Assembly (NCBI GenBank): GCA_037189525.1
Contig: JBBCJC010000005.1
Coordinates: forward strand, 192,001 to 256,000
Length of the DNA stretch: 64,000 nucleotides
Direction of reading: 5' to 3'
Source of the DNA: Gemmatimonadales bacterium
GTDB lineage: Bacteria; Gemmatimonadota; Gemmatimonadetes; Gemmatimonadales; GWC2-71-9
The notes under the pieces are model-generated. The model searched no databases, had not been told where the DNA came from, and saw only the letters and a program-made list of their open reading frames with translations. A program made the position numbers and the translations under genes. Of the stretch, positions 2,724 through 2,893 are shown in pieces; the stretch's first letter is position 1; the number at the start of each line of letters is the position of its first letter.

Positions 2724-2822
2724 ATGAACCGTACTCTCCTCTCCACGATCCTCTCGGCGCCGGCCATGTCGGCGGCGATGATGTGTTGTGGGCCCTGCCG
2801 GGGTCGGAGGATCGGTACGTAG
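2724..2822 (+). CDS. Putative attenuator leader peptide (32 aa, Met/Cys cluster)
   Basis: MNRTLLSTILSAPAMSAAMMCCGPCRGRRIGT*. ATG-ATG-TGT-TGT at 2778-2789 and TGC at 2796. Lies just upstream of a terminator and metY. No clear SD. Confidence 0.75.
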   Translation: MNRTLLSTILSAPAMSAAMMCCGPCRGRRIGT

Positions 2823-2868
2823 TTACGTCGCCAGCACAAATACGACGCACGCACCGGACCCGGCCCCG
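2799..2868 (+). promoter_or_regulatory. Putative antiterminator hairpin of the met attenuator
   Basis: CGGGGUCGG (2799-2807) pairs with CCGGCCCCG (2860-2868, one G-U). UCGGUACGU pairs with ACGCACCGG, and CGUCG with CGACG. This sequesters the terminator 5' arm. Confidence 0.7.
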
Positions 2869-2893
2869 CCTCATCGCGGGGCCTTTTAATTTT
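2862..2893 (+). terminator. Intrinsic terminator in the metY 5' leader (attenuator)
   Basis: GGCCCCGC-ctcatc-GCGGGGCC followed by TTTTAATTTT, about 20 nt before the metY start. Confidence 0.85.

Follow-up and report, generated by a model that had tools for sequence, protein, structure and literature searches.

A candidate methionine- and cysteine-reading leader attenuator upstream of metY-metX in a Gemmatimonadales bacterium and its relatives

The window (the whole stretch of DNA analysed, 64,000 nt) carries near its beginning a short open reading frame (ORF) and two overlapping predicted hairpins, followed by metY, which encodes an enzyme of the O-acetylhomoserine (thiol)-lyase family, and by a metX-like gene. 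The features of the locus are as follows:

2647-2652, + strand: TTGACA hexamer, a possible -35 element by sequence; related leaders often follow TTGACN-17/18-TAnnnT
2724-2822, + strand: leader ORF of 32 codons, without Shine-Dalgarno (SD) sequence; from its ATG onward it resembles the two closest relatives
2778-2789, + strand: control codons Met19-Met20-Cys21-Cys22 (ATG ATG TGT TGT), kept in both closest relatives
2791-2805, + strand: candidate 1:2 protector or pause hairpin, directly 3' of the control codons (-8.5 kcal/mol for 2787-2809)
2799-2868, + strand: predicted antiterminator (2:3), with the last leader codons and the stop codon on one side and the spacer and terminator 5' arm on the other
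2862-2893, + strand: predicted intrinsic terminator (3:4), with 8 GC pairs, a 6-nt loop, and the tail TTTTAATTTT
2904-2908, + strand: SD-like GAGGA of metY by sequence, invariant in the two closest relatives
2913-4247, + strand: metY (TIGR01326, 663 bits vs a cut-off of 495)
4244-5245, + strand: metX-like homoserine O-acyltransferase gene, its start overlapping the metY stop (TIGR01392, E 2e-78)

The preliminary description of this DNA had named the downstream genes metY-metX; this held for metY, which exceeds the family cut-off, whereas the metX-like gene stays under the NCBIfam cut-offs (264 bits vs 500). The closest named MetY records in the GTDB scan belong to Gemmatimonadota. On the minus strand, a 395-aa ORF (5384-6571) runs convergent on metX and matches no Pfam or NCBIfam family.

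The leader ORF is the 3' portion of a longer open frame starting at 2436, and it contains Met15, Met19-Met20-Cys21-Cys22, and Cys25, just as first described. The control codons are conserved in the two closest relatives, one of which has an additional in-frame ATG in the run; this extra ATG, one whole codon, is the sole length difference in the leader among them. No SD precedes ATG 2724, confirming the earlier observation. The ATG at 2766, which had been offered as an alternative start, has no counterpart in the two closest relatives; conservation begins at ATG 2724 instead. Cys25, listed with the run in the preliminary description, is absent from the same two relatives, and a ribosome stalled on it should, by the modelled folds, favour termination; Cys25 and ATG 2766 probably lie outside the device. 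A Met-Cys-Ala-stop mini-frame (2707-2718) ends 5 nt ahead of the leader ATG; the two closest relatives do not share it, and it could be due to chance or aid re-initiation.

As regards transcription, the promoter scan returned no site in the focal region and no consensus promoter was found. A promoter at the focal leader is not established, because the TTGACA at 2647-2652 has no matching -10 element at 16-18 nt. The covariance models of Rfam 15 (riboswitches, T-boxes, and leader families) gave no match at E≤5 over positions 2000-3300; a known riboswitch was the competing outcome named in the preliminary description. In a wastewater RNA run (a small share of its words), a 256-nt contig with 12 differences aligned at 2695-2951, spanning the terminator, with a depth of 2.1. 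We did not count it as evidence because a contig gives no information on transcript ends or abundance and may derive from DNA.

The two main hairpins had also been noticed beforehand, and both were recovered. The terminator stem (2862-2883) is all-GC and, followed by TTTTAATTTT, folds at -18.1 kcal/mol; the terminator scan returned three sites, two of which are the same hairpin, vs 0.4 in shuffled sequences. The T tract is interrupted, which may make the predicted terminator leaky, and it lies only 19 nt from the metY ATG. The alternative hairpin folds at -31.7 kcal/mol and takes up 2862-2868 of the terminator 5' arm, a segment common to both structures, so that the two are mutually exclusive.

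This arrangement is probably a classical ribosome-read transcription attenuator, which would sense charged Met- and Cys-tRNA ahead of metY-metX. When these tRNAs are scarce, the ribosome would stall on the Met-Met-Cys-Cys of the leader and leave the RNA from 2799 onward free; the antiterminator could then form, and RNA polymerase would read into metY-metX. With an ample supply, the ribosome would move on to cover 2802-2832, which would let the terminator form and end transcription near 2890. The hairpin at 2791-2805 may serve as the 1:2 protector. The reading is supported in silico, by an ORF, hairpin sequences, conservation, and spacing that are observed and by folds and a switch that are predicted; we infer that the leader is translated, that termination takes place in vivo, and that the device responds to Met and Cys.

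To model the ribosome, we blocked the RNA under a footprint covering 9, 12, or 15 nt and moved it one codon at a time. With 12 nt covered, the predicted probability of the terminator was 0.00-0.03 with the A site at Met19-Met20, where the strongest antitermination of the focal leader is predicted, about 0.6 at Cys21-Cys22, and 1.00 from Gly23 through the stop codon. A footprint of 9 or 15 nt shifted the predicted flip by one codon, later or earlier, respectively. The stall-versus-stop logic first suggested from the sequence is thus reproduced by constrained folding, with a flip between Met20 and Gly23 and a predicted switch point directly after the control codons; Cys25 falls on the wrong side of the switch. 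When the free segment was replaced by dinucleotide shuffles, the terminator was suppressed equally well in 3/300 (from 2793) and 6/300 (from 2799) cases, and its 5' arm was sequestered equally well in 17/300 and 57/300, respectively. The support given by these controls at the focal locus is only moderate. In the absence of any ribosome, the focal RNA is predicted to favour the antiterminator (0.91), and the untranslated relatives are mixed, with predicted values of at least 0.6 in 43/77 and below 0.4 in 21/77.

The distribution of the leader was evaluated at increasing phylogenetic distance. A first search covered 41 genomes, nine of them with a close MetY orthologue, and leader and terminator were found in all eight orthologous loci with upstream DNA (8/8, own locus included). 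The order sample comprised 401 genomes, 95 of which had a MetY match at E≤1e-120; 90 of the 103 matches were retrieved, and 13 were left out (2 truncated and 11 weaker paralogues). Loci with a bit score below 400 or an alignment starting past residue 30 were excluded, together with eight duplicates and one region with less than 200 nt upstream, leaving 159 distinct usable upstream regions in the order sample and the GTDB scan. Leader and terminator preceded metY in 54/92 distinct order regions, 50 by rule and four by hand, the latter added because they are homologous but have three Met/Cys per eight codons. The split by family was 41/49 in the own family and 13/43 in the neighbouring one, and eight further order regions have a leader with a terminator outside the rule. 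In the GTDB scan, 23/67 additional regions were positive (one by hand), including Longimicrobium, Acidobacteriota, one Thermodesulfobacteriota, and one Limnocylindrales record. Since kin are not independent, these counts describe the spread of the device and are not to be read as a p-value; the conservation of Met/Cys leader and stems that the preliminary description had asked about is, at any rate, found among relatives. As a background, the same rule (a window with at least four Met/Cys codons, a stop, and a terminator) was applied to the DNA ahead of 1908 long genes in the own genome and fired 3/1908 times: at the focal leader and at two sister leaders on another contig (C2).

Met and Cys were both present in 77/77 of the leader runs collected. 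The antiterminator arm starts at a median of 16 nt past the last Met/Cys codon across the 77 loci, within the 15-20 nt anticipated beforehand. The complete terminator wins at equilibrium at every ribosome position in most relatives, and a clear flip is seen, by eye, in about 20/77. As full-length equilibrium folds give mostly the terminator whatever the ribosome position, we cut the relatives' transcripts at the terminator loop for the fold test. On these transcripts, predicted sequestration of the terminator 5' arm stayed at 0.74-0.79 as long as the ribosome had not passed the last Met/Cys codon and fell to 0.47 three codons and 0.30 six codons beyond it. The largest drop fell 0 to +5 codons past the run in 52/77 leaders (median +3 codons). 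In 71/77, in agreement with the proposed logic, a ribosome placed on the last Met/Cys codon of the run gave more sequestration than one placed on the stop codon, and the difference was at least 0.3 in 65/77. Because the finished terminator usually wins at equilibrium, the switch in most relatives would have to be kinetic, with the antiterminator forming before the terminator 3' arm is made. In classical attenuators, switching is established as kinetic.

The sequence of the terminator arm differs between groups, and the segment past the run changes along with it. In 62/77 leaders and in 25/34 arm types, this segment is a better partner for the terminator arm of its own locus than for the median arm of the other types, and the own-arm advantage peaks 9-15 nt past the last Met/Cys codon. 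In an alignment of 28 relatives, the antiterminator helix is 91% paired, vs 26-54% in slid controls, and two-sided changes occur in 3/7 of its pairs, each in one sequence (three cells). The terminator helix is 95.5% paired in the same alignment, with 24 two-sided changes, and the 1:2 helix is 76% paired. Hairpins resembling the 1:2 helix are present in many relatives, but across the 77 leaders they are weak against shuffles (median z -0.9, with 17/77 below -1.65). Dinucleotide shuffles of the spacer between leader and terminator often match the real duplex (median z -0.74, p≤0.05 in 17/77). By sequence and modelled folds, the leader shows four defining features of a trp-type attenuator: the uORF run, the predicted terminator, the exclusive antiterminator, and the codon placement.

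Other explanations of the same arrangement have to be weighed. One is nascent-peptide arrest, in which the Cys/Met-rich peptide would stall the ribosome in response to a small molecule (for example SAM, sulfide, a metal, or an oxidant), in TnaC style, acting on the same terminator and antiterminator. Such a system would show identical RNA anatomy, and the run does end in Cys, the codon nearest the antiterminator, in 67/77 leaders, with CxC and MC patterns recurring. Nevertheless, Met and Cys follow no fixed order or spacing from one group to the next, and the residues flanking them show no conservation. Moreover, the rare Cys codon TGT is strongly enriched in leaders (TGC 121 and TGT 111, against TGT 1283/5742 in the own genome), which speaks against peptide arrest because codon choice matters for the tRNA supply and not for the peptide; we consider this explanation improbable. 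Slimmer still, in our estimate, is the chance of an attenuator that senses through its Cys codons alone, with Met codons that serve as alternative starts or are mere passengers. The frequent Cys at the end of the run would suit it, as would the 56/77 runs that begin with Met, a possible start codon, and Cys leaders are known from two reports (PMC8632094, 10.1101/834739). It fits poorly, though, with at least two Met in 63/77 runs and with a separate ATG, in frame and no less than 12 nt ahead of the run, in 53/77. The cysK leader of the own genome lacks internal Met and the metY leaders have it, and the strongest predicted antitermination of the focal leader lies at Met19-Met20 and not at the Cys codons.

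Doubts about whether the run is read as codons at all come from the lack of an SD in the focal leader, from an SD-like word ahead of a start in only 30/77 leaders, and from the simple-repeat character of the run. The AUG/UGU-rich stretch might then act as RNA, either as an unknown riboswitch or by binding an antitermination protein, and the ORF would be incidental. Against this stand the nearly equal interchange of TGT and TGC and the frame of the upstream ATG, which is that of the run in the 53 leaders mentioned and another one in 0 and 1 (since the leaders were selected for Met/Cys runs, the purity of frame within the run partly follows from that selection). A -35/-10 pattern was found in 20/37 riboswitch-free leaders, and in 14/20 of these promoter-bearing, non-tandem leaders an in-frame start lies 4-10 nt past the -10 box, which would be the geometry of leaderless ORFs; the focal leader is not among them. 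The whole-codon length change among the closest relatives and the lack of an Rfam match point the same way, and we hold an incidental ORF to be very unlikely. Lastly, a stand-alone small ORF or RNA might end at a constitutive terminator, with metY under its own promoter. The dominance of the finished terminator in the equilibrium folds of most relatives is what such an arrangement would give. The short distance between T tract and metY ATG leaves it little room, however, and it does not account for an antiterminator conserved at a fixed distance from the run, or for a device tied to sulfur genes; it seems to us hardly credible. The preferred reading remains attenuation by a ribosome that would read both Met and Cys codons.

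Riboswitches share the metY upstream regions with these leaders. In the neighbouring family, the metY regions devoid of a Met/Cys leader showed a SAM-II-type pattern in 28/28 cases, and 14 such loci pass the Rfam model RF00521. In the MetY tree set, 38 loci have the leader and 31 the riboswitch as their sole element, 48 combine a SAM-II-type element with the leader, and 42 lack both; in the tandem loci, the SAM-II-type elements were scored mostly by our own pattern, one being confirmed by Rfam. In these loci, the SAM-II-type element, with its own hairpin, stands ahead of the leader. Leader and riboswitch states are intermixed within two Gemmatimonadota-rich clades (FastTree, midpoint root). 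The own genome has SAM-II elements before metH, a homocysteine methyltransferase/MTHFR gene, and a thrC-like gene (L197-L199, on contigs C2 and C1), and no SAM-I was found in it.

Several further elements were noticed in the upstream regions. About 35 of them (L069-L112 and L175) share, about 215-375 nt upstream of metY, a SAM-II-like element that is highly conserved and has both an additional hairpin and its own terminator-like stem; the members tested gave no Rfam match at E≤0.5, and the element is a candidate SAM-II variant. A second conserved motif, with a hairpin and a T tract, stands ahead of SAM-II in several riboswitch-only metY leaders (L047, L049-L051, and L150, by eye), and no Rfam match at gathering score was obtained for L047 and L049-L051. 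L032 and L127 share, upstream of metY, a short conserved element that contains a terminator-like hairpin. It does not fit the SAM-II pattern and is not a clear Met/Cys leader either; it precedes the leader in L032 and stands alone in L127. In L103, positions 1-214 form a long near-perfect inverted repeat with miRNA-model matches below gathering score, possibly an assembly fold-back.

The two sister Met/Cys leaders of the own genome (contig C2, L196, 16713-16796 and 14405-14527, minus strand) have terminators and a clear predicted switch. Their targets are a 687-aa Ig-like protein (Big_2, weak choice-of-anchor B) and a SusC/SusD TonB-dependent pair, and the leaders possibly control the uptake of a sulfur source. 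A Cys-only leader precedes cysK (contig C3, L206, 1259-1412, plus strand), with a hairpin, a T tract, and a leaderless-looking uORF that holds two Cys-Cys pairs, all TGT, and no internal Met. The same leader is present in one same-genus genome (L207). A clear antiterminator was not predicted for it (0.2-0.5), and no similar leader was seen at the 11 cysK-like matches beyond the genus (50-53% identity). It is somewhat more likely than not that Gemmatimonadota and some Acidobacteriota possess a codon-read sulfur regulon, in which Met/Cys leaders, many of them translated from leaderless transcripts, would replace SAM-II or stack behind it as two-input gates of metY, with a codon mix that fits the target (Cys only for cysK, Met and Cys for metY and TonB-dependent uptake genes).

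The protein encoded downstream is itself poor in the two amino acids. MetY (444 aa) has one internal Met and no Cys, and Met and Cys are as scarce in just 10/1605 long ORFs of the own genome. Taken over all MetY proteins encoded at the 77 leader loci, ATG accounts for 0.4% of codons and Cys for 43/33339, i.e., a strong sulfur sparing. In the own genome (98% complete), no cysE over the cut-off, no PAPS reductase, and no nitrite/sulfite reductase were found. From these missing genes and the Met/Cys-poor MetY, we infer that the host depends on reduced sulfur, with MetY as a main entry point. MetY may be built for production during a shortage of sulfur amino acids, which would fit the dual sensing of Met and Cys.

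Methionine genes are usually described under repressors, SAM/SAH riboswitches, and T-boxes. If the proposed mechanism is true, methionine, jointly with cysteine, joins the amino acids sensed by classical attenuation, and attenuation of this type extends to a little-studied phylum of soil and wastewater. The occurrence of leader only, SAM-II only, and tandem arrangements on orthologous metY genes would offer a natural series for comparing the measurement of tRNA charging with that of SAM. A puzzle concerns initiation: Met starvation should slow initiation on the leader as well as elongation, and the focal fold predicts that an untranslated leader stays ON.

No methionine leader attenuator was found in a full-text search of openly accessible literature, in line with the preliminary description, which knew of no established Met(+Cys) leader attenuator on metY-metX. 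The comparison that follows rests on the available text of the sources cited, which also include PMC2965389 and PMC5737381. Classical leader-peptide attenuators are described for trp, his, thr, leu, ilv, and phe (PMC9971707, PMC2659441, PMC5314783, PMC11109978). The focal element resembles them in having a uORF with codons for the pathway product, an antiterminator over the leader end, an intrinsic terminator, and a predicted ON state at the stall. It differs in its Met and Cys codons before metY-metX, its occurrence in Gemmatimonadota and Acidobacteriota, the leaderless look of many relatives, and the SAM-II element often placed in series. Among regulators of methionine genes, SAM-II (RF00521) and SAM-I/T-box(Met) tandems precede metX/metY (PMC4239095, PMC9481103). 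The T-box tandems have the same targets and combine SAM and tRNA-charging signals, as SAM-II plus leader loci would; unlike in those tandems, it would be the ribosome, translating codons, that reads the charging signal here, and the focal leader has no riboswitch. The text of PMC4239095, on methionine regulators, contains neither "attenuat" nor "leader peptide"; it describes the metXZ element of beta-proteobacteria as a pseudoknot without leader peptide. For the fthC uORF of Streptococcus, methionine sensing via the initiator tRNA at the start codon has been proposed (PMC11109978). Both are, like the focal leader, candidates for RNA-level control of methionine-related genes with a terminator, from which, going by their descriptions, the run of internal Met/Cys codons sets the focal leader apart.

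Closer in the amino acid sensed are the known Cys leaders. According to the available text of 10.1101/834739 (Canestrari et al.) and PMC1262725 (Seliverstov et al. 2005), mycobacterial polycysteine leaders are leaderless sORF attenuators without intrinsic terminator that act by hiding the SD; the latter study also saw no conserved RNA element ahead of the methionine operons in Actinobacteria. These leaders share with the focal one the sensing of a sulfur amino acid through codons of a short, often leaderless uORF, but they carry Cys only, whereas the focal element has a conserved predicted intrinsic terminator in place of SD hiding. The uORFC-8-2 motif before cysS in Rhodobacterales has a predicted tandem-Cys uORF and an intrinsic terminator, with proposed ribosome stalling (Brewer et al. 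2021, PMC8632094). Unlike the focal leader, it has Cys codons only, belongs to a tRNA synthetase gene of alpha-proteobacteria, and involves neither Met codons nor met genes; "methionine" and "metY" have no occurrence in the main text of that paper, and one of its supplements gave no match. Because a predicted Cys attenuator with an intrinsic terminator before cysS is already in print, what is new in the element proposed here is its putative Met(+Cys) specificity on metY-metX.
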